Shown piece by piece: positions 3,182 through 14,127 of a stretch of DNA of 64,000 nucleotides. Below the pieces are notes generated by a model. That model ran no database searches. It was not told the origin of the DNA and saw only the letters and a list, made by a program, of their open reading frames with translations. The stretch's first letter is position 1. The number at the start of each line of letters is the position of its first letter. The DNA comes from Planctomycetota bacterium (GTDB lineage: Bacteria; Planctomycetota; UBA8742; UBA2392), in assembly GCA_025993795.1 (NCBI GenBank), contig JAMQHL010000047.1:6529-70528 (forward strand), given 5' to 3'. The translations under genes and the position numbers were made by a program.

Positions 3182-3231
3182 ATCGTTCCGACTTGTAAGA
3201 CTTCGTTGCTTCTGTGGCGTATAATAGCGTT

Positions 3232-4362
3232 ATGAAGGCTGCCTTCAAACTTGTCCTGCTTGTGGCGCTGGTTCTGTTGCTCGTTCCTGTCGTTGGCCGT
3301 ACGTGGCACTCGCCGGACCTGTGGCTCAATTGGGCGGCGCTTGCTGTCAGCCTTCTTGGCGCGGTCGCTGCCGGGCTCAGCCTGCGCAAGCCCTCTGGCA
3401 AGCCGCGCTGGTTCCACTTGCGACCTGTGATCGTGGCTGTGTGCAGCCTGTTTGTCGGATTGTTCTACTTTGCGATGCGGGTGCCCGCGCCCATGGGCGA
3501 GGGGCCAGCCGGCCCTCCCGTCGACAGGCAAGCCTTCGCCGGCACATGGAGCGAGAAACCAGTGCTGCTGCTGAGCCTTGGCGACAGTGTCAGCACCGGC
3601 TACGGCGCGCCCAACGGCATGGGATATGTCGACCTTCTGCAACGCAACCTCGATGACGCCTACCCCGACATGGCCGGCTGTGAGCTGCGCAAAGTGCTGC
3701 CCAACCTGAAAGAGCGCAGGCTCGCCGCCAACAGTACGAACAGCCTGCAACACGTCCGCGACATCCAGAACCTTCCGGTGTACGGCGACGACGTGGTCGG
3801 CATCGTCTGCATCACGACGGGCGGGATCGACCTGATCCACAACTACGGCAAAGCCAAGCCCCGCGAGGGCGCCATGTACGGCGCGGACTGGGCGACAGCC
3901 GAGCCGTGGATCGCCAACTTCAGTGCGCGGCTTGACGAGATGATGCTGGCGCTGAAGCAGAAGTTTCCGGGCGGGTGCGTTGTGCTGCTGGCAACGATTT
4001 ACGACCCGACTGACGGGGTTGGCGACATCGAGAACGCCGGGCCGTTATTCTGGTTGCCGGCGTGGGCAGACGGCTACCCCGTGCACACGGCGTTCAACGA
4101 CGCGATCAAGGCCTGCGCCGCCCGGCACGACCACGTGAGCGTCGCCGACATCCACGCCGCGATGATGGGCCATGGCATTCACTGCCGCGACGAAGACAAC
4201 CCGCATTACGACGCGCGCGACCCGTCGTACTGGTACTGGGTCAACCTCGAGGACCCGAACCGGCGCGGCTACGACGCCATCCGCCGCGTGTTCCTGAATG
4301 CGATTATTCGTGCCCTGCTCAGCCATCGGGCCTTTGACGTTCCTGCCCCGGCTGGGCCATAA
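3232..4362 (+). CDS. membrane-anchored SGNH/GDSL-family hydrolase
   Basis: Two N-terminal TM helices followed by block I LLLSLGDSVSTGYGAP (GDS(L) motif with catalytic Ser). The C-terminal region carries a DxxH-like segment (HCRDEDNPHYDARD). Start taken at ATG 3232 (MKAAFKL), preceded by TATAAT at 3219-3224; the ORF track starts at GTG 3214. Confidence 0.65.
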   Translation: MKAAFKLVLLVALVLLLVPVVGRTWHSPDLWLNWAALAVSLLGAVAAGLSLRKPSGKPRWFHLRPVIVAVCSLFVGLFYFAMRVPAPMGEGPAGPPVDRQAFAGTWSEKPVLLLSLGDSVSTGYGAPNGMGYVDLLQRNLDDAYPDMAGCELRKVLPNLKERRLAANSTNSLQHVRDIQNLPVYGDDVVGIVCITTGGIDLIHNYGKAKPREGAMYGADWATAEPWIANFSARLDEMMLALKQKFPGGCVVLLATIYDPTDGVGDIENAGPLFWLPAWADGYPVHTAFNDAIKACAARHDHVSVADIHAAMMGHGIHCRDEDNPHYDARDPSYWYWVNLEDPNRRGYDAIRRVFLNAIIRALLSHRAFDVPAPAGP

Positions 4363-4369
4363 TCGGCGC

Positions 4370-5059
4370 ATGGATGGTGACCCCAACTTTCGCCTGAAAG
4401 CGTTTGCCGTACTCACCTGTGTGCTGGGCGTGTTCCTGGTTGTGTTTGTCGCCCAGCGCGCGTGGTTCTGGGTAAAATCAAAGCGCCGCGAAGACGTTGA
4501 AACCAGCACGCTGGCCCCGATCATTGACTTCGGCCTGTTGGGCATCGGCTGCATCGTCATCTGGCTGGCCATTGAGGCGCTGGTGCTGGCGGTGATTACA
4601 GCCGAACTGCCCACGCAGCCCGCAGTGCGGCGCAAGATTGCCGAGATTGAAATCGGCAAACTTGATGAACAGACCGACCAGTTGAACCTGTTGTTCTATC
4701 CAGTGGACCCGGCGGGCCGACGCCTGGCCGAACAGCGGCGGCCCGTGCTGACGTCGGGCAATCACTTTGAGCTTCAGGTAGAAACGCTGCAATGGCGCTG
4801 GGCCTGGGACTGGCTTGGCGAGGGCGGGTTCTACCAGTTCATCAGCCTTGCCGGGTATGGCACGCGAACGGCCTCGGCACCGCAACGCACAGAGCTCGAA
4901 ACGCGCGAAGTGCCACGCACCGTCGGCGCAACGCTGTTTCTGCGCGCGCCGCAGCACTGGGAAGTACGCCAGAGGTGCAAGGAAGGCGAGATCTACGACA
5001 TCTTCCTTGACCCGGCACAGAAGGCGCTGGTCGTCGAACTTCACAGCAACGAACGGTGA
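4370..5059 (+). CDS. hypothetical membrane protein (2 TM)
   Basis: ORF with hydrophobic helices (FAVLTCVLGVFLVVFVAQ; GLLGIGCIVIWLAIEALVLAVI) and no recognisable domain. Start at ATG 4370 (MDGDPNF), just after the GDSL stop at 4362. Confidence 0.4.
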   Translation: MDGDPNFRLKAFAVLTCVLGVFLVVFVAQRAWFWVKSKRREDVETSTLAPIIDFGLLGIGCIVIWLAIEALVLAVITAELPTQPAVRRKIAEIEIGKLDEQTDQLNLLFYPVDPAGRRLAEQRRPVLTSGNHFELQVETLQWRWAWDWLGEGGFYQFISLAGYGTRTASAPQRTELETREVPRTVGATLFLRAPQHWEVRQRCKEGEIYDIFLDPAQKALVVELHSNER

Positions 5060-5063
5060 TTGG

Positions 5064-6944
5064 CTAGCCCGGCGGACCGGCCATCGGCGGACCGGGAGGC
5101 ATCTGGTCGGGCAGCGGCTGTGTGACCTGCTGCAGCACCTGCTCAAGGGCGGCCTGCGTCACTTGCGGGGGTATGGCCTCGTGGCGCTGCTCGGCGTTGG
5201 CAGTGGCCTGCGCAACCAGCTTCATTACTTTGCGATGGCTTACGATGTTCAAGCCTAGCAGGCCCAGCCCCAGCGCCGCCGTCACGCCGGTGAATGTCCA
5301 CCAGCGCATGTTCAAGCGCTTTGCGCGAATCTCGTACTGCTTGGCCCGGTCGGGGTCTACCAGCGCGATGCGCCCCGCAGTCTTGCCGTGGTCGATCGAA
5401 GTCATGCATGCATGGATCGGGCTGAACTGGGCAAACTTCTGGTCTTCTATCGCGCCATTGCCACTGAACTGCTCGCCGATCCAGGGCACTGCAAGCCACA
5501 CCACGAGGACCAGCGCACCCAGCACGCCCGATAGAGATTTTGAAAGCCCGCTCAAGGAAATGCGCCATGTGACCTGGCTGGTGACCAGCACGGTCAGCCC
5601 GATCGCGACCAGCATCAGCAGGAACCCGCTGTACTCGTGGCCATAAAACGTGACTACGTCGCGCTTGGCGCTCTCGATGGTGCCGCCCGCCAGGCGCGTC
5701 ATGGCTGTGCCCGCCCCCGAGCCTGACCGCGTAGCTTCCGCCATCTGCGAGTAGTCGGCTGCCACCATTGACACGTCGTCAAGGCGCGACTCAAGCTGCA
5801 CGAACGTCAGCCAGCCCGCCACCGCAAGCAGCAGCATGCCCACGCCTACCAGCATCGCGGTGTGCAATGCCCCGCGCGCACCGCCGGGAAAGAACATTCC
5901 AGCGCCACCCTTGACCAGCCCCTGCGGCAGCTTAGACATCTCGCGGCGCACGCGGCGACTGGCGACAGGCGCCTCTGCGGGCGCGCTGAGTGCCGGCACC
6001 AGCAGCAACGCACCAAGGTACACGGCAGCCAGAATCAGCGTAGAAAACGCCGCGTCGTGCGACGGCAGGCGCGACATCATGAAGTAGGCGCCGATCTGCA
6101 CTGGCACGACAATCGCCACAGCGGTCCAGAACAGGCGCAGTCCGGTGCTCTTGTTGTGTGACGTGGGCTTGAGCCGGTTGGTCGTCGAGAGAAACAGAAA
6201 GGTGCAGTAGATCGCGCACGAAACCGTCAGCGTGGTGACGTAATAAATGCCCTCGTTCAGCGTCGGGTCGGTCAGGAAAGCAACCAATGGAAATGTCGCA
6301 GCGGCAAAAGCGCGCGCGACCATCAGGATGATGAATACGGTCAGCAGGATCATCCCGAAGAAGAACGCAAACAGATAGGTCACCAGCACAGCCGGAATGC
6401 TCTTGGTGACAAGACTGGATGCAAAGACGCCCAGAAAGCTGATCAGCAGGCTCAGCAGCACCAGCATCCACAGGATGGCAAAGAACACCTCAGGCTTGAT
6501 GCCGCCGAACAGGTTGGCCATGGCGAACAGCGGCACGGTTGCAATCAGGAAGATGCTGGCCTGGATGCCGGCGGCAAAAAACTTGCCCAGCGCGATTTCC
6601 CACGGCGCCAGCGGCGTGAGCAGCAACAGGTCAAAACTCTTGCGTTCATGTTCCGACGCGATTGCGGTACTCGAGAACGCGGGAAAAACCAGCATCACCA
6701 CGATGACCAGCACGACCGCCAGCGTCGTGAACAAGCCGCTGCCGATCGATGTCGGGTCTTCGTACAGGCCGGCCGAGTCAGACGCAACGAACAGCCAGAT
6801 CGAGAAGATCGCGCCCTGTACCAACAGATACGCCGTGAGAATGATGACCAGTTTCCAGCTGCGGCAGGCAACGCGCAGTTCACGCACCGCCAGCGGGTTC
6901 ATGAACAGGCGCTTGAGAATGCCCGGTGTTTCGGTTTCTGCCAC
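5064..6944 (-). CDS. ABC-2 type permease, large double-module (≈12 TM)
   Basis: 626-aa polytopic protein. The N-terminus (NPLAVRELRVACRSWKLVIILTAYLL) is typical of GldF/ABC-2 permeases. GTG start at 6944 overlaps the upstream stop by 1 nt, and it is the last gene of the ABC operon. Confidence 0.55.
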   Translation of the reverse strand: MAETETPGILKRLFMNPLAVRELRVACRSWKLVIILTAYLLVQGAIFSIWLFVASDSAGLYEDPTSIGSGLFTTLAVVLVIVVMLVFPAFSSTAIASEHERKSFDLLLLTPLAPWEIALGKFFAAGIQASIFLIATVPLFAMANLFGGIKPEVFFAILWMLVLLSLLISFLGVFASSLVTKSIPAVLVTYLFAFFFGMILLTVFIILMVARAFAAATFPLVAFLTDPTLNEGIYYVTTLTVSCAIYCTFLFLSTTNRLKPTSHNKSTGLRLFWTAVAIVVPVQIGAYFMMSRLPSHDAAFSTLILAAVYLGALLLVPALSAPAEAPVASRRVRREMSKLPQGLVKGGAGMFFPGGARGALHTAMLVGVGMLLLAVAGWLTFVQLESRLDDVSMVAADYSQMAEATRSGSGAGTAMTRLAGGTIESAKRDVVTFYGHEYSGFLLMLVAIGLTVLVTSQVTWRISLSGLSKSLSGVLGALVLVVWLAVPWIGEQFSGNGAIEDQKFAQFSPIHACMTSIDHGKTAGRIALVDPDRAKQYEIRAKRLNMRWWTFTGVTAALGLGLLGLNIVSHRKVMKLVAQATANAEQRHEAIPPQVTQAALEQVLQQVTQPLPDQMPPGPPMAGPPG

Positions 6945-9280
6945 TACTCGATCCGCTTGAGAATGTGAAACCCGAACTTGGACTCGCAGTAACCAACTTC
7001 GCCGACCTTCAGTTCTGATGCAAGACGCGTGAAAGGCTTGACGAACTTCGGTGACTCGTCGACATCGTAGGTGTTGTCGGGGACGCTGTCTTCATTGTGT
7101 TTGCGCTGCAACTCAATGAAGTCGGCAGTCGCGGCTTCGACAATGATCCGCTGCATCAGGTCAAGGGCCTGGGCCTTGCTGCGACCGGCTTCCTTCGGCT
7201 GTACGCCGCCGACGTTGCCTTCCCATGACACCAGGATCTGCCGGACTTTGGCCTTGAAAGCGCCAATCACGCGATAGTCCGCCGGGTTGATAAACAGCGC
7301 GTCGGCGCTGGCATCATCAACCCAGTGCAGCTTTTCTTCGGCCCCGGTGCGCTGCGACAGCACCGGCGTATAGCCGTGATCGGGCGTGCCGAAGCGCAAC
7401 GTAATGCGCTGTGAAGTTCCCTCGCGGCCAAGTGCCACGCTGATGCTGCGTTTCGCGTTGTCGCCGACGCCAAGCGCCTCGTGGTCAATGACTCCGTCAT
7501 GGCGCACGCCTGTCAGCGAACGCAGGCCGTTCTGCAACTGGTTCAGAGGCACCGAGTCTGCGGCAACGGGCGTTTCGCCGGCGATCTTCCACCCATCGGC
7601 CTTCTCTAGCTTCAGTGTTGATTCACCGTCGCGCACCGATATCTCCACGGGCTCGTCTGTGAACTTCATCGCGCCCGTGTTCTCGGGTTCCTGCAGGTCG
7701 CGCGGACTGAAGAACAGGTCCGCAAGGCGCGCCTGCGGCACCCAGAACACGCGGTCGGCTTCGCCTTCCTGCGTGCGCAGCACGGGCACGTCCTTGTCAA
7801 CCGCGACGCCGAAGTAAAGCCGCGCGGTCTTCAACGCCGGTGGCTTGGGGAGTACTGGTGTCTCGGGGTCTTCCGGCGTGTCAGGTTCATCGTCGCCATC
7901 GCTGGCGCGCGGCTTCCACTGGGCTTCAATCCATTGTTCGCTCAGGCCCGGCCCCAGCTTCAGCTCGTCGCGCTTGATCGCCTTGGCGTCATCGCCGTAG
8001 CCCTGGAGCGCGAGCAGTGTGGTCAACACATTCGAGACGGCGGCAAGGCTGGCTTTGCCGATGAAGGGCTCGTTGATCTGCCAGCGGTCGCTCGCGTCGC
8101 GCTCAATGCGGACGACCTTGCCTTGGTCGAAAAACAGCATCTGCGTCGGCTGAATACCGTCCGGGATCAGCACAAGGCGTGCTTTCTCAAGAAAGTCGCC
8201 GGTGGGCCGGAAGATGCGCGACAGTGCAGCATCACTGCACCAGTACACCAACTCGCCGCGATCGGTGGCTTTGAGCAGCGTCGCCACCTGGTTGTCCTCC
8301 CCGTTGCCGAAATAAAGGCGGCTGACGCTCTGCTTTTCGCCTTCGGTAAACTCGATGACGATTTCACGTTTGGCATCAATCACGCCAAGCGCGGCACCAT
8401 CGGTGTCAAGTTTGCCCGCGATGTCGCTGGCATTAAAGTTCATCAGCGCGTCCACGATCGCCCGCACGTTGGCGCCGTTGGCCTTGGATTTGCGCGGGCT
8501 GGTCATTTCCCATTCCTCGCGCGTCGCGTCGCTTCCGGCCACGCGACTGAACAGCACAACGCGGTCACCGTCGCGCAGCGAGATGCGCTGCGCAACGGAT
8601 TCAAAGGGCAGCGGCTGAAACGAAGAAAGGTCAAGCCAGCGCTTGGTGTTGGGTTCGCCTTCGGGCGTCAGGTGCAGGCGTGAGTACAAGGAATCAAAGT
8701 CGCCACTCATGTCGGACACTTCAAAGATGCCGCCGGGCGCGCCGTCACCAACGAAGCGCACAAACGCGCGGTTGCCGGTTTCGGCTTTGCCGACCATCAG
8801 GTGCAGCAGCTCTTTGCCGCTTTCGCCCAGGATTCGCAGGTGCGCGGCACCCTCGTCTTCAAGGCGGTAGAGAATGTAGGACTCGGTTTGTGTGGATGCC
8901 GGCCGGTTCAGACGCTTGGCGTCCATCAGCTTGGTCAGCAGCGCATTGACTTCGCGCTCATCGGCGGGCGTGTTGAACTTGGCAGGCACGCGCCATTGTT
9001 CGCGCTCGTTGCGCAGCACAAGCTTGTTGCTGCCGCTTTTCCATATCTCGATTGCCCTGACATCTGCCTTCTTGAACGCCGGGGCTTCCGTGGTGCCTCC
9101 GACCAGCGGCAGCTCAATGACGGGCGCTTCGGGTTTGCTGCCCAGGCGTGTCAGTGCCACCAGGCCCGCGAGCACCAGGCACACGACTGTAATGATAATC
9201 AACTGCCGGTTGCGCTGCGAAGCAATCACTTCGTCAGGCGTGAAGCGCTGCTTGTCGTCGGTCTTTGCGGGCTCGCTCAT
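6944..9280 (-). CDS. DUF4340-like (GldG-associated) protein fused to C-terminal PpiC/parvulin peptidyl-prolyl isomerase domain
   Basis: N-terminal TM (LIIITVVCLVLAGLVALT) followed by a long periplasmic region in the position DUF4340 occupies after GldG in such operons. The last ~110 aa (KVRQILVSWEG...FIELQRKHNEDSVPDNTYDVDESPKFVKPFTRLASELKVGEVGYCESKFGFHILKRIE) match the parvulin fold consensus (S.d..s...GG.lG.f..g.m...F..a.f.l..Gevs.pv.t.fGyHii). Confidence 0.6.
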   Translation of the reverse strand: MSEPAKTDDKQRFTPDEVIASQRNRQLIIITVVCLVLAGLVALTRLGSKPEAPVIELPLVGGTTEAPAFKKADVRAIEIWKSGSNKLVLRNEREQWRVPAKFNTPADEREVNALLTKLMDAKRLNRPASTQTESYILYRLEDEGAAHLRILGESGKELLHLMVGKAETGNRAFVRFVGDGAPGGIFEVSDMSGDFDSLYSRLHLTPEGEPNTKRWLDLSSFQPLPFESVAQRISLRDGDRVVLFSRVAGSDATREEWEMTSPRKSKANGANVRAIVDALMNFNASDIAGKLDTDGAALGVIDAKREIVIEFTEGEKQSVSRLYFGNGEDNQVATLLKATDRGELVYWCSDAALSRIFRPTGDFLEKARLVLIPDGIQPTQMLFFDQGKVVRIERDASDRWQINEPFIGKASLAAVSNVLTTLLALQGYGDDAKAIKRDELKLGPGLSEQWIEAQWKPRASDGDDEPDTPEDPETPVLPKPPALKTARLYFGVAVDKDVPVLRTQEGEADRVFWVPQARLADLFFSPRDLQEPENTGAMKFTDEPVEISVRDGESTLKLEKADGWKIAGETPVAADSVPLNQLQNGLRSLTGVRHDGVIDHEALGVGDNAKRSISVALGREGTSQRITLRFGTPDHGYTPVLSQRTGAEEKLHWVDDASADALFINPADYRVIGAFKAKVRQILVSWEGNVGGVQPKEAGRSKAQALDLMQRIIVEAATADFIELQRKHNEDSVPDNTYDVDESPKFVKPFTRLASELKVGEVGYCESKFGFHILKRIE

Positions 9281-11586
9281 TCGGCGCCTCCCGTGAACGC
9301 TGTGTCATACTCTTCGCGCTCGCGCAGCCGCACATAACTGCGCGCGCCGGCCACAATCACGAGCAGCAAGGGCACGCCTGCAACACAGACCAGAAACCAG
9401 AACACTTTCAGGTTGTTCGACACGGGCCCCGCAATGCGGGGGCTGACGCCCGTGCGGGCCCGCAGGTTCACCAGGTCTTCGCCATAGATGAATACTTCTG
9501 ACAGGTTGCGATACAGCGCAATGCCGCGATTGATCACTACCGGTTGGATCTCCTGTCGCGTCCAGCCGCCGAAGTACTCGGTGTTCAGGATATCGGCGCT
9601 GGTGATGATGATCAGGTTGCCCTCGCGGCCATTGACAGCCGGCGTGGTCTCGTTGGCGGGGTCGGCACCCTGCCAGCCCGGAATCTTGCGCTGTTCATCG
9701 GCCCAGAGGCTCGGGAAGCGTCCCTTGATGTGCACTGCTACCAGCGGGTCGTGATCGAGCAGTTGTGCGCGCACCTGCTTGTCGGGCGCTGCCGACGCGT
9801 TCTGTTCGACTTCGCGTTTGCTGTCCAGATCGAGGTTCACAGGAATGGTCGGAAAAGCCGGGTTGGCCGGGATGAACCTGTATACGCCATCCTTCATGCG
9901 GATGATTTCGGTGCTTTGCAGCTCGCGGCTGGCAAGCCGGGCCTCATTGAGCTTGACCTCAATCGGCAGCGGCATCGGAAGCCCCGCAAGCCCGCGGGTC
10001 AGGACGTTCTCGGCGTTCAGGTCCTGCGGTGCAATCGCCGGCGCAAATTTCAGCTTGCTCGGCACCGGCATGCTGGCCTGTCCGCCGCGCCCATCCGCCA
10101 TCACGTGAAAGGGCGACAGGCGGGCGTTCTTGCGAAGCAGCAAGTCCTGCCCGAAGTCAACCCCGACGTGCGTTGCCCAGTCAGTGAAGTGGGGCTGCAT
10201 GTTCACTTTCTGCAGCGACATGTCGTCCTTGGTCGGCGCCTGGCCGAAGTCAAGCTCGGCGCGCCAGCCCTGCACCATCATCACGACGTTGCCGCCTTCC
10301 GCGAGGTAGCGGTCGATCTCATACAACTCGCGTTCACTGAGCTGGTTGGGTTCCATGACGATCAGGCATGCAAGGTCGCCCGGGATGCGCTTGCTGCCGA
10401 TGATGTCCACCCACATCGTGTCGTAGCCCAGAAACTCCGAGATGTAGTTGTACAGCGGCGTGTGCCCGTTCGCCGGCGGGTTGCCCGGCCGCTCATGCAT
10501 CTTGTACTTGGGCAGCGTCGGCGGCAGGACAAACCCCAGCCGAGAGCGCGGCTTCAGCGTCTCCCAGATCCAGTCCTCAATGCGCTTCTTGACCGCGGGC
10601 TGGTTCTCGTCCTCAAGGAAGTTCACGATCGCGTAGGGCTTGTCGGCAGCGCTGACGCGCATCATCAATGTCGTGTAGTACGCCGACTCGGGAATCTGCA
10701 CAAGCTCGCCGGTTTCTGTGCGGCCCAGGCGCGCCTTCTTGGCGCTGACAAACGGGTATTCGACCTTGCGGCCGCTGCCGAACGCGTCGTCAAGCTTGAT
10801 CGGCGCATCGGGACCAACCATTACCTGCTGGTACCCAACCTGCGGCGGCGCCAGTGCGGCGATTTCCAGCATCGAGTTGTGCACCCACTGGCCCATGCCC
10901 TTGTACTGGTCAGGCAGGTCGCTGCTGTGGATGTACCGAAACTCAATACGCTCGCTGCGCGCCTTGAGCAGGCGGTCCAGCGTGGGCCGTACAACCTTGT
11001 TCTTCATGCGCAGCAGCGCGTACGCGACGTCAAACTCAAGCGTGTCCACCCGATGCTCGGCGCTTTCGTCGTTGCGGTCGTACAGGTTGACAATGCCGTT
11101 GATGACTTCAGGAGGCGAGGTCCCGTACTGAACCTTGATGCTCGAAAAGAAGCCTTGGATACCCTTGGTTTCAGCGGCTTCGTCGTCGCCCGTCGTCATG
11201 ACATCGATCGTGCGGGTGATGCCGTCTTTCTCAAGTTCCTTGGCCTTTTCCGCGGCGTCGCGGTTGGCAATGCGCACCACGCTGAACTGCAGCTTGCCCC
11301 CCGAGCTGGTTGCCAGTTCGCCAAGTTTGTCGCGCACGTCGCGCTCAAGGTTGATGCGCTTGGCTGGCGGCTCCTCATCCACGTAGTAGGTCACGGTCAC
11401 GGACTCGGGCAGTTTGTCGAACAACGCCTTGGTGCCGGGGCTCAGCGAGAAGCGCTGGTCGGCCGTCAGGTCGAGGCGCAGACGGTGCTCCATGCCCAGG
11501 TAGTTGACCACCCCGATGGCAATCGCGGTCATCACCGCCAGCAGCAGGAAGTGCCACGTGTAGTTGCGCTTGCGGTTGACCATCAC
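9277..11586 (-). CDS. GldG-like ABC-transporter auxiliary protein
   Basis: 769 aa with an N-terminal TM (WHFLLLAVMTAIAIGVV) and large periplasmic domains. Its position between the ABC-2 permease and the DUF4340 protein, with 4-nt overlaps on both sides, fits the GldA/GldF/GldG gene arrangement. Confidence 0.55.
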   Translation of the reverse strand: MMVNRKRNYTWHFLLLAVMTAIAIGVVNYLGMEHRLRLDLTADQRFSLSPGTKALFDKLPESVTVTYYVDEEPPAKRINLERDVRDKLGELATSSGGKLQFSVVRIANRDAAEKAKELEKDGITRTIDVMTTGDDEAAETKGIQGFFSSIKVQYGTSPPEVINGIVNLYDRNDESAEHRVDTLEFDVAYALLRMKNKVVRPTLDRLLKARSERIEFRYIHSSDLPDQYKGMGQWVHNSMLEIAALAPPQVGYQQVMVGPDAPIKLDDAFGSGRKVEYPFVSAKKARLGRTETGELVQIPESAYYTTLMMRVSAADKPYAIVNFLEDENQPAVKKRIEDWIWETLKPRSRLGFVLPPTLPKYKMHERPGNPPANGHTPLYNYISEFLGYDTMWVDIIGSKRIPGDLACLIVMEPNQLSERELYEIDRYLAEGGNVVMMVQGWRAELDFGQAPTKDDMSLQKVNMQPHFTDWATHVGVDFGQDLLLRKNARLSPFHVMADGRGGQASMPVPSKLKFAPAIAPQDLNAENVLTRGLAGLPMPLPIEVKLNEARLASRELQSTEIIRMKDGVYRFIPANPAFPTIPVNLDLDSKREVEQNASAAPDKQVRAQLLDHDPLVAVHIKGRFPSLWADEQRKIPGWQGADPANETTPAVNGREGNLIIITSADILNTEYFGGWTRQEIQPVVINRGIALYRNLSEVFIYGEDLVNLRARTGVSPRIAGPVSNNLKVFWFLVCVAGVPLLLVIVAGARSYVRLREREEYDTAFTGGAE

Positions 11587-12560
11587 GAGTACCTCCGTGA
11601 TTCAAGCGACCAGACGTTCAGCAGCACAAAGAAGACCACCAGGCCCCCAAAAAAGACCAACCCGTTCGTGTTCACGACCCCGCGCTGGATTTCACCGAAG
11701 TGGTCCAGCACGGCAATCTGTGCCAGCGCGCTGACCACGATTTCTCCGGCCTGGGTGGTCCCGCGCGTTACCGTCTCGATTGTCCCGGCGATATCTTCAC
11801 TGTTGGTGGCCTTTGTTGCAGTGCCCTCGGCGCCGCTCAGTGCGTAGGCGATCATGTTGCCGACGACCGCCAGTGCGCCGATCGCCACTGCCACGGCTTT
11901 GTCGCGGCCGACTGCGGCGGCAAGAAATCCGATACTCACGAGTGGAATGCTGATCAGCAGCATCAGCGCTGACTCGGGGTTCGTGCGCGCAAGCTCGCCC
12001 AGCAGACCGCGCATCTCGCCCATACCGACAATGCCAAGGCAGATCAGCATGCCCAAAAAGAACGCCAGCGCCTGGTTCTCGGTCAAGCCGCTGACAAACA
12101 AGCCGATGGCGACAAACGCTGACCCAAGCAGGAAGCAGGCCACGTAACCGCCGATCACCGGCGCCCAGTCCGGCTGCCCGAACTGGCTCAGCATCAGCGG
12201 GTAGGCCACTGTGCCGGCCAGCATGGCGGCCAGAAACGTGACGCCTGCGAAGTACTTGCCCAGCGCGACCTTCCATGTCGGGATCGGCAGTGTCATCAGC
12301 ATCTCAAAGGTCGCCTGGCGCCGGTCATCGGCCCACAGGCGCATGCTGACCGCCGGCACAACCACGGCCGCAACCCACGGGAATACGCCAAAAAACGTGC
12401 GCATCGAAAGCTCGCCGCGCGCAAACCAGTCTCCGCCGCCGCCGAGCGGATCGAGCATTACGCTCAGCATCATCATCACAACCACGAACGCACCGATGAT
12501 GCCGATGCCCATCAGCGACTCGAAATAGCCCTTCATCTCCCGCATGTATATCGGCAGCAT
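11583..12560 (-). CDS. ABC-2 family permease (GldF-like)
   Basis: 325 aa with ~6 TM and an N-terminus REMKGYFESLMGIGIIGAFVVVMMMLSV. ATGA overlap with the downstream gene and a 1-nt overlap with the ATPase stop. Confidence 0.65.
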   Translation of the reverse strand: MLPIYMREMKGYFESLMGIGIIGAFVVVMMMLSVMLDPLGGGGDWFARGELSMRTFFGVFPWVAAVVVPAVSMRLWADDRRQATFEMLMTLPIPTWKVALGKYFAGVTFLAAMLAGTVAYPLMLSQFGQPDWAPVIGGYVACFLLGSAFVAIGLFVSGLTENQALAFFLGMLICLGIVGMGEMRGLLGELARTNPESALMLLISIPLVSIGFLAAAVGRDKAVAVAIGALAVVGNMIAYALSGAEGTATKATNSEDIAGTIETVTRGTTQAGEIVVSALAQIAVLDHFGEIQRGVVNTNGLVFFGGLVVFFVLLNVWSLESRRYS

Positions 12561-13777
12561 CAGACATCCCCCCTGTCCGGCGGTCGTGGCGAATACAACG
12601 TCTTGTCGGGGTCGGGCTTTTCGCCCACGTCTGTAGCTGTATCGCTGGATGCATCTTCCGAGTGGTAAAGGTCGGCCTCTGTCGCCCTGTGCGTCACACG
12701 CGTGGCAGCCGCCGTTGCGTTCGGGTCTTCGGGCACATCATCGGCCGCGAATTTTGGCGGCGTCTTGGCTGTTTCTTTCTCGGTTTCTGATCCGGGCTTG
12801 TCTTCAGCCTTCCACGTCGGCTTCTCCGGCGTGCGCGACTTCTGCAGCAGGTTCAGGAAGATGTGCTCCAGCGTCTGCTTCTCGGGCGCCAGTTCCGCCA
12901 GGAGGAAGCCTCGTGATTGCACCTGCACCGCGACGGCTTCGCACGTTTCGCGACTGCCGCGTTGTCCGCCGCCGACCGTCAGCAGAAAGCGTGTATAGCC
13001 GCTGGGGCCCTGCTGCTTTTCGACAGACTTGACGGTTTCAAGCCTCGCGAAAGCCTCAGAAAGCGCATCGTCGCCGCCCTTGACCAGCACGCGCACCGCC
13101 AGCGTGTCAGAAGATTGCGCAGCGAGTTGCTCGACGGTGCCGTCGGCGACTTTTTTCCCGCCGTTGACGATCACGAGGCGACTTGCCACGGCAGTCGCCT
13201 CTTGCAGGATATGTGTGCTGAAGATGATGCACTTGCTCTGGCGCAGGCGTTCAATGAGCTTGCGGATCTCGATAATCTGGCGCGGGTCAAGGCCGCTGGT
13301 AGGTTCGTCCAGGATCAGCACTTCCGGGTCATGAATCAGTGCCTGTGCCAGCCCCGTGCGCTGCTTGAAGCCCTTGGACAGCTCAATCACGCGCGCCTTG
13401 AACTTGGGGCGCAGGCCGCAGTCGGTGACAACCGATTCAAGGCGTCGTTTCAGCTCGGCACCGCGAAGGCCGCGTGCGCGCCCGGCGAACTTGAGGTAAT
13501 CCTCAACCGTCATGTCGCCATACAGCGGCGGGGTCTCGGGCAGATAGCCGATGCGGCGTCGCACCTGTTGTGGAAACGCATGCACGTCATGCCCGCCCAC
13601 GCTGGCCGAGCCCTCGCTGGCCGAGATGTAGGTGGTGAGAATCTTCATGGTGGTGGACTTGCCGGCACCGTTGGGGCCCAGAAAGCCCAGCACCTCGCCC
13701 TTGTCAACGTGAAAGCTCACGCCATCAAGCGCCTTGAAGTGGCCGTAGTACTTCGTGATGCCATTGACCTCAATCAT
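12560..13777 (-). CDS. ABC transporter ATP-binding protein (GldA-like) with acidic/Pro-rich C-terminal tail
   Basis: Walker A GPNGAGKST, signature LSKGFKQRTGLAQAL and Walker B LILDEPTSGLD are all present. The ~130-aa C-terminal extension is low-complexity (PEKPTWKAEDKPGSETEKETAKTPPKFAADDVPEDPNATAAAT...). Confidence 0.85.
   Translation of the reverse strand: MIEVNGITKYYGHFKALDGVSFHVDKGEVLGFLGPNGAGKSTTMKILTTYISASEGSASVGGHDVHAFPQQVRRRIGYLPETPPLYGDMTVEDYLKFAGRARGLRGAELKRRLESVVTDCGLRPKFKARVIELSKGFKQRTGLAQALIHDPEVLILDEPTSGLDPRQIIEIRKLIERLRQSKCIIFSTHILQEATAVASRLVIVNGGKKVADGTVEQLAAQSSDTLAVRVLVKGGDDALSEAFARLETVKSVEKQQGPSGYTRFLLTVGGGQRGSRETCEAVAVQVQSRGFLLAELAPEKQTLEHIFLNLLQKSRTPEKPTWKAEDKPGSETEKETAKTPPKFAADDVPEDPNATAAATRVTHRATEADLYHSEDASSDTATDVGEKPDPDKTLYSPRPPDRGDV

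Positions 13778-14051: not shown

Positions 14052-14127
<76 letters not shown>

Follow-up and report, generated by a model that had tools for sequence, protein, structure and literature searches.

In Flavobacterium johnsoniae the ATP-binding cassette (ABC) components GldA, GldF and GldG and the periplasmic PPIase (peptidyl-prolyl cis-trans isomerase) GldI are all required for gliding (PMC9127263), GldI shares a mutant phenotype class with GldA/F/G (PMC9127263, PMC6316441), and the stability of GldK, a lipoprotein of the T9SS (type IX secretion system), needs both GldI and GldF (PMC9127263). A DUF4340 gene is conserved beside ABC transporter genes in SAR11 (OG1814), where gene neighbourhood and AF-Multimer led to the prediction that its product is a transporter subunit (bioRxiv 10.64898/2025.12.11.693642), and in Verrucomicrobium spinosum (VSP_RS39600) a domain of this family is essential. 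Here we describe a locus in a 64-kb stretch of DNA (the window, that is, the whole stretch analysed) on contig JAMQHL010000047.1 of a Planctomycetota bacterium, where a DUF4340 protein of 778 amino acids (aa), encoded in an operon of GldA/F/G-like genes, ends in a parvulin domain. According to our analysis this fusion is real, it recurs in a second and much larger protein family and altogether in hundreds of uncultured Planctomycetota, and the best reading of the 778-aa protein is that an ABC-2 envelope machine of the GldG type, present in an uncultured Planctomycetota lineage, has it as an integral accessory subunit.

The list of open reading frames (ORFs) places five genes on the minus strand, running from 13777 to 5064. 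They encode a 405-aa GldA-like ABC ATPase that has a C-terminal domain of the GldA type and a tail (12560..13777; PF00005, ABC_tran, 102.8 bits), a GldF-like ABC-2 permease of 325 aa with about eight hydrophobic segments in a hydropathy scan (11583..12560; ABC2_membrane_5, 30 bits), a GldG-like accessory protein of 769 aa (9277..11586; PF09822, ABC_transp_aux, 76.4 bits; PF23357, DUF7088, 62.2 bits), the single-pass DUF4340-parvulin protein of 778 aa (6944..9280), whose assignment rests on Pfam, its homologues and an AlphaFold2 (AF2) model, and a fifth protein of 626 aa with an ABC-2-like N-terminal half (5064..6944; PF01061, ABC2_membrane, 28.8 bits over residues 19-194). The DUF4340-parvulin gene thus directly follows the gene of the GldG-like (ABC_transp_aux) protein. 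Stops and starts overlap at the four junctions as TGATG, GTGA, ATGA and TAGTG in 5' to 3' order, a GGAGG-like motif lies a few bases upstream of each junction, and the translationally coupled five-gene operon proposed in a preliminary description of this DNA is borne out; a consensus scan for terminators and promoters inside the operon gave none above the shuffled expectation. The order of the genes is the same in 19 loci of species-representative genomes, as far as the fetched DNA extends, with the 778-aa subunit at 35-89% identity in these species-level genomes.

The likeness to GldA/F/G has to be taken with a restriction. The nearest NCBIfam families are indeed those of the gliding machinery, but the scores stay below the equivalog cut-offs for GldA (TIGR03522, 313.8 versus 402.6), GldF (TIGR03518, 137.2 versus 288.5) and GldG (TIGR03521, 69 bits versus 389.85), no gld or T9SS genes occur within the 64-kb window, and all relatives come from metagenome-assembled genomes (MAGs) of Planctomycetota. 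With three scores below cut-off and no Bacteroidota context we reject true Gld orthology and retain only the resemblance. The topology of the GldG-like protein is nevertheless that of GldG, since transmembrane (TM) segments at residues 13-31 and 728-746 flank a large periplasmic region in the hydropathy scan.

The 778-aa protein itself has a single TM segment (residues 26-44), and the charge bias around it, with five Lys/Arg residues before the helix and two after it, places the N-terminus inside. With this topology residues 45-778, parvulin included, are predicted to be periplasmic, and the domain would be an extracytoplasmic parvulin tethered to the cytoplasmic membrane, as had been proposed beforehand. 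The cytoplasmic N-terminus and the TM segment (residues 1-47; 9140..9280, minus strand) are delimited by alignment A1 and by a helix over residues 15-47 in the AF2 model, which was built from a 20-sequence alignment and reaches a mean predicted local distance difference test score (pLDDT) of 85.5. Just before the TM segment, residues 13-26 (9203-9244, minus strand) carry the motif TPDEVIAxQRNRQ, which is invariant within the five-gene clade, P15, D16, V18, A20, Q22, R23 and Q26 being invariant columns of alignment A1, and which is not present in the canonical four-gene fusion proteins described below; the tail of the ATPase or the fifth subunit may make contact with the protein here.

The match to DUF4340 (PF14238) is well above threshold, at 61.4 bits against a cut-off of 25, and it falls into two stretches. 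The preliminary assignment as DUF4340-like is therefore retained, except that it does not describe a single domain: repeated secondary structure in the AF2 model divides residues 60-667 (7280..9103, minus strand) into four beta-rich DUF4340-type modules, a to d, with bounds at about 70-200, 225-350, 378-520 and 540-660. Among hidden Markov models (HMMs) of the modules, D2 and D3 match each other's regions, and the D3 model also matches the D1 region. An Asp/Glu/Pro-rich disordered insert of variable length sits within module c (residues 461-482; 7835-7900, minus strand; pLDDT <50; disordered over 461-479 in the AF2 model), and this Pro-rich segment would lie in the periplasm where the parvulin of the same protein could reach it. 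Module b alone (residues 222-366; 8183-8617, minus strand) is modelled at a pLDDT of 92.6, and a Foldseek search of the PDB with it brought nothing significant (best E 0.039, probability <=0.2); for DUF4340 the full-length model returned just weak matches of low TM-score, to PCNA and TbpB. Judging from these models, the DUF4340 module may be a fold without a solved representative.

Residues 676-778 (6947..7255, minus strand) form a parvulin (PpiC-type) domain of what we call the 'YxV' subtype, as supported by Pfam, by fold, by a table of site residues and by the ratio of nonsynonymous to synonymous substitution rates (dN/dS). In the full protein Rotamase_3 (PF13616) matches residues 676-775 at 30.6 bits (cut-off 22.5); scanned alone, the C-terminal 118 aa reach 35.9 bits with Rotamase_3 and also pass Rotamase (PF00639) at 22.3 bits (cut-off 21.7). 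The AF2 model shows the beta-alpha-alpha-beta-alpha-beta-beta parvulin fold over residues 676-776, with strands at 676-684, 737-741, 762-767 and 770-776, helices at 702-716, 721-728 and 748-756, and a pLDDT of 83-95 for these blocks. Foldseek of the parvulin part retrieves Pin1 and PpiD (8zht) with probability 1.0, while a profile of the parvulins of the clade finds as its best PDB match the Pin1 entry 2rud (the C113D PPIase domain, E 6e-12), in which Asp stands where other Pin1 entries have Cys, followed by PrsA, archaeal PinA and SurA. The preliminary claim of a C-terminal parvulin on a DUF4340 protein is thus confirmed by profile, by model and by structural comparison.

How complete this parvulin is can be judged from the residue equivalents, taken from the Pin1 alignment and an hmmalign table of 28 clade domains. 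Cys113 of Pin1 corresponds to Asp731 (Asp in 27 of the 28), His157 to His772 (His in 26), Thr152 to Ser767 (Ser or Thr in all 28), Phe134 to Phe750 (Phe in 27) and Leu122 to Val740 (Val in 26), and the position of Met130 is taken by Phe746 (Phe in 14, Leu in 8, Trp in 3). The first active-site histidine, His59, is replaced by Gln681, the clade being divided here between His (16 domains) and Gln (10), and the GGDLG loop is replaced by x-Y-D-V, so that the window domain reads NED...YDV instead of S.D...GGDLG. On this residue-level evidence the proline pocket and most of the hydrogen-bond network survive, the Asp, the second His and the Ser being kept together with the pocket residues, and one of the two histidines is lost in this subclade, which corrects the preliminary description. 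It has been argued that the dual histidines of Pin1 are structural rather than strictly catalytic. A phospho-specific, Pin1-like function is rejected, since the basic loop residues are absent: in the Pin1 alignment the K63/R68/R69 cluster is not conserved, with Ser at K63 and R68 falling in a gap. No WW domain was matched in a Pfam scan of the 778-aa protein.

Selection has evidently kept the domain. Across 16 full-length homologues its mean pairwise identity is 52%, on par with the best DUF4340 modules (31-54%) and above module d (31%); dN/dS of the parvulin segment, calculated against relatives of 89% identity, is 0.09-0.17, which indicates purifying selection, and this selection spans the junction between the DUF4340 part and the parvulin. 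About 20-30 clusters of homologues combine the two domains; every one comes from Planctomycetota MAGs, and the searches brought up no cultured host.

A second, much larger family with the same combination of domains was found by an exhaustive representative search and a follow-up profile search. These proteins, of 455-470 aa or about 610-630 aa, also come from Planctomycetota MAGs, one of them labelled Candidatus Brocadiia; at 90% identity they make at least 111 clusters beyond the window clade (for example P0160, P0272, P0197 and P0177), and a DUF4340 module and a parvulin occur together in 111 of the 117 clusters retrieved. Their parvulins are canonical, with the motifs ASHIL, S-D-G/C, GGDLG and FGFHII, the first His in 107 and the second in all of 111 sequences, GDLG in about 106-108 of 111, and Pfam scores of about 97-106 bits in the four proteins scanned. 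Like the window protein they possess an N-terminal TM segment, one or more DUF4340 modules and a C-terminal parvulin. Three genomic contexts were examined, and each shows an operon of four genes in which those of an ATPase of about 240 aa, an ABC-2 permease of about 243 aa and a GldG-like protein (DUF7088 plus ABC_transp_aux) come first and that of the DUF4340-parvulin protein comes fourth and last. Unlike the window clade they have fewer DUF4340 modules, a short ATPase and no fifth permease gene, whereas the window clade differs by a longer ATPase with the GldA-type C-terminal domain and the tail, a longer GldF-like permease, four DUF4340 modules, the N-terminal motif and the fifth gene. The window protein is best filed as a lineage-specific, expanded member of a recurrent DUF4340-parvulin architecture.

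The preliminary description held this architecture to be undescribed, and in one sense it is: full-text searches of the literature gave no paper describing a DUF4340-parvulin fusion or tying a parvulin to GldG-type systems, and DUF4340 itself was mentioned in just four of the papers returned. It is not rare, however, with at least 111 further clusters, and the canonical fusion proteins already carry the NCBI name 'peptidylprolyl isomerase'. The fusion is, in other words, a recurrent architecture that is present in public annotation and otherwise undescribed.

It would be logical to ask whether the two families go back to one fusion or to two, and we compared them by nearest-neighbour and bootstrap distances and by reciprocal HMM scores. 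The YxV subtype, in which SED...Y.V stands in place of S.D..GGDLG and the Asp-His-His-Thr/Ser network is mostly kept, is also met outside DUF4340 proteins, namely in small secreted proteins of 150-170 aa, in tandem arrays of four to five domains, in a Ser/Thr kinase with three parvulin domains and in beta-helix-like GNDxY repeat proteins (listed in this group are P0033, P0043, P0061, P0038, P0062, P0051, P0098 and P0157); P0093, found alongside the YxV proteins, is a cyclophilin with two parvulin domains. We know of no description of this subtype. The nearest outgroup of the clade parvulins is a YxV parvulin of a non-DUF4340 protein in 15 of 15 sampled cases and in 99% of bootstrap neighbour calls, whereas that of the canonical parvulins is a classical GGxLG parvulin in 25 of 25, at a mean identity of 50%. 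An HMM of the canonical N-terminal part scores non-fusion DUF4340 proteins (median 54 bits) above the window clade (median 40 bits), and the reciprocal test points in the same direction; as regards DUF4340, then, either family stands at least as near to proteins without the fusion as to the other family. The nearest named non-fusion relative belongs to Candidatus Hydrogenedentota. Because the parvulin subtypes differ and the DUF4340 parts are not each other's closest relatives, the comparison suggests that one and the same subunit acquired a parvulin at its C-terminus on two independent occasions, or else that one parvulin replaced another there, and such repeated fusion argues for a functional link of the parvulin and the DUF4340 subunit.

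We propose, with our confidence evenly balanced, that the 778-aa protein assembles with the ABC system and that its parvulin, held on this tether, serves as foldase or chaperone to envelope proteins which the machine handles on the spot or close by. One N-in TM helix would anchor the protein, the four DUF4340 modules would project into the periplasm with the parvulin at their end, and this head would capture envelope proteins at the machine that contain Xaa-Pro, are unfolded or have just been exported, with isomerisation as a possible further step, while the core of ATPase, permease and GldG-like protein would serve as a platform, possibly with ATP-driven conformational changes. Physical assembly with the ABC core, as well as a protein client and any catalytic activity, is what we infer from operon, topology, domains and conservation, and the proposal is compatible with the subunit prediction for the SAR11 DUF4340 protein, with the essentiality in V. 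spinosum and with the link of GldI and GldF to GldK. The preliminary suggestion of a substrate with prolines, to be handled or folded by the machine, is plausible, although the window domain, with His changed to Gln in its active-site network, could also be a chaperone or docking module without catalysis.

Several points weigh against this proposal. Operon membership by itself is no proof of assembly, and the client and the transported substrate remain putative. Catalysis of prolyl isomerisation by the window domain is uncertain, because the first active-site His is Gln in the window protein and its close relatives (in 10 domains out of the 28 of the clade) and another sequence stands in for the GGDLG loop; parvulin domains devoid of PPIase activity are known, moreover, in periplasmic chaperones, for instance in PpiD and in the P1 domain of SurA. 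The indications of two fusions consist of nearest-neighbour distances and HMM scores rather than a rooted phylogeny, and the set compared was picked by similarity to the window protein. Finally, a Pfam scan of the 50 nearest non-fusion DUF4340 proteins found no other Pfam domain on any of them, and with 50 out of 50 lacking a chaperone domain the core machine would appear to need none.

The same observations can be read in other ways. The fusion would be trivial if an assembly or frameshift error had joined a separate PPIase gene to a DUF4340 gene, a possibility which the preliminary description had itself raised and which we consider virtually negligible and reject: the frame is continuous, the identical 778-aa protein was found on 10 contigs examined, from at least three independent samples, the architecture is found in 19 related genomes and about 30 clusters, and purifying selection acts across the junction. 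A more substantial alternative, though we find it rather unlikely, is that the parvulin does not process clients at all and is a non-catalytic docking or structural module which helps to assemble or span the envelope complex by binding a segment with prolines, either in the machine itself or in some fixed partner; the GldG-like protein, a component of the outer membrane and the Pro-rich linker of the 778-aa protein are examples. The change of His to Gln, which is fixed in the subclade of the window protein, the replacement of GGDLG by YDV and the low Rotamase_3 score of 30.6 bits, beside the about 97-106 bits of the canonical fusions, speak for such a module, the periplasmic Pro/Asp/Glu-rich linker of residues 461-482 would offer it a partner, and the inactive domains of PpiD and SurA P1 would be its precedent. 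Yet the clade has conserved both the Asp-His-Ser/Thr network and the residues of the hydrophobic pocket, the active site is canonical in the larger sister architecture, and the occurrence of the YxV subtype in free small proteins and tandem arrays suggests a general client-binding role.

The nature of the cargo leaves room for a further explanation, in which a lipid, glycolipid or polysaccharide is transported and the parvulin is a general periplasmic foldase merely anchored by the subunit and functionally independent of transport. ABC-2 permeases commonly handle lipids and glycans, most DUF4340 proteins have no chaperone domain, and a conserved SGNH/GDSL hydrolase adjoins the operon, all of which fits a non-protein cargo; but in two families the very same subunit carries a parvulin at its C-terminus, of a different subtype in each, which is hard to explain by neutral tethering, and no other Pfam domain was found on the DUF4340 proteins in the sets examined. 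We judge this explanation unlikely.

We may even suggest, as an improbable reading, that the operon encodes an ATP-powered machine for periplasmic folding or insertion. ATP hydrolysis by the GldA-like ATPase would then be passed on as mechanical force, first to the ABC-2 permeases and the GldG-like protein and from these to a long arm of DUF4340 modules that bears the parvulin at its tip. If true, Planctomycetota would possess a chaperone driven by energy from across the membrane in a compartment without ATP, and by extension GldG/DUF4340 ABC systems, including GldAFG of the gliding Bacteroidota, would act on envelope proteins and not on small-molecule cargo. ABC systems of the GldG type that are partnered by DUF4340 occur widely and have remained orphans, and a fusion is a useful functional clue to them; having apparently arisen twice, the parvulin-DUF4340 fusion may serve as a 'Rosetta stone' that links these machines to periplasmic protein folding. 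By itself the fusion is neither unique nor does it settle the function of the machine, but it provides a concrete hypothesis, and the parvulin domain can be used as a bait for clients.

Other parts of the locus deserve a brief account. The tail of the ATPase, about 95 aa long (residues ~311-405; 12560-12850, minus strand), is acidic, Pro-rich and of low complexity, and is without a counterpart in the 240-aa ATPases of the four-gene operons. The 626-aa protein had been regarded as a double permease, for which the analysis gives no support: just residues ~19-280 are ABC-2-like, about four further hydrophobic segments and a Pro-rich C-terminal tail follow, and a BLAST comparison of the N-terminal with the C-terminal half gave no similarity and detected no internal duplication. 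Its similarity to the GldF-like protein is evident by BLAST (E 6e-7). The gene is kept at every related five-gene locus that reaches its position and is absent from the three four-gene parvulin operons examined.

Upstream of the operon lie phoU and pst genes, which are split from it by a terminator-like hairpin and by a tRNA-Lys(CTT) between the phoU terminator and the operon start (14052-14127, plus strand, hence opposite to the operon). On the other side two plus-strand genes converge with the operon, namely a TM-anchored SGNH/GDSL hydrolase with three N-terminal TM segments (3214-4362; PF13472, 39.9 bits) and a protein of about 229 aa with two TM segments and no Pfam match (ORF 4298-5059, plus strand, probable start Met25 at 4370); across the 19 related loci the two-TM protein adjoins in 17 and the SGNH gene is found in eight. 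The rest of the 64-kb window is ordinary, with pst, phoU, a PAS/HAMP histidine kinase, a Na/H exchanger, RsmB, YidC, BatA and a Ser/Thr kinase. At one related MAG locus (L001, 3358-4404, plus strand) two genes for ThsB-like TIR-domain proteins lie just upstream of the ABC operon; they may belong to a defence island and look unrelated to the fusion.

Placed among the known systems, the window protein shares features with several of them. Pin1 provides the best PDB sequence match and has a long beta1-alpha1 loop of similar length, but it differs by its WW domain and its basic phosphate-binding residues, and the window domain has Asp for Cys113 and Gln for His59. PpiD, which acts with YfgM at SecYEG, PrsA and SurA resemble the window protein as membrane-anchored periplasmic or extracytoplasmic parvulins, PrsA and SurA being matched by the parvulin profile as well; the body of the window protein, however, consists of beta-rich DUF4340 repeats, with no Pfam or NCBIfam match to a SurA_N or PpiD-type chaperone domain in the 778 aa, and its genetic partner is an ABC-2 system and not Sec. 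The DUF4340 proteins of SAR11 and V. spinosum belong to the same Pfam family and have no reported parvulin domain. With GldA/F/G of F. johnsoniae the operon has in common an ATPase and an ABC-2 permease, together with a protein of the GldG type whose terminal TM segments, two in number, enclose a large periplasmic domain, although in Flavobacteriia it is dnaN that follows gldG, with no DUF4340 gene adjacent (PMC5682007). GldI, in turn, is a PPIase lipoprotein with a gene of its own (Fjoh_2369) and, unlike the window protein, is not described as a parvulin fused to a transporter subunit. The functional clue offered by the fusion fits the requirement of both GldI and GldF for the stability of GldK in F. 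johnsoniae.

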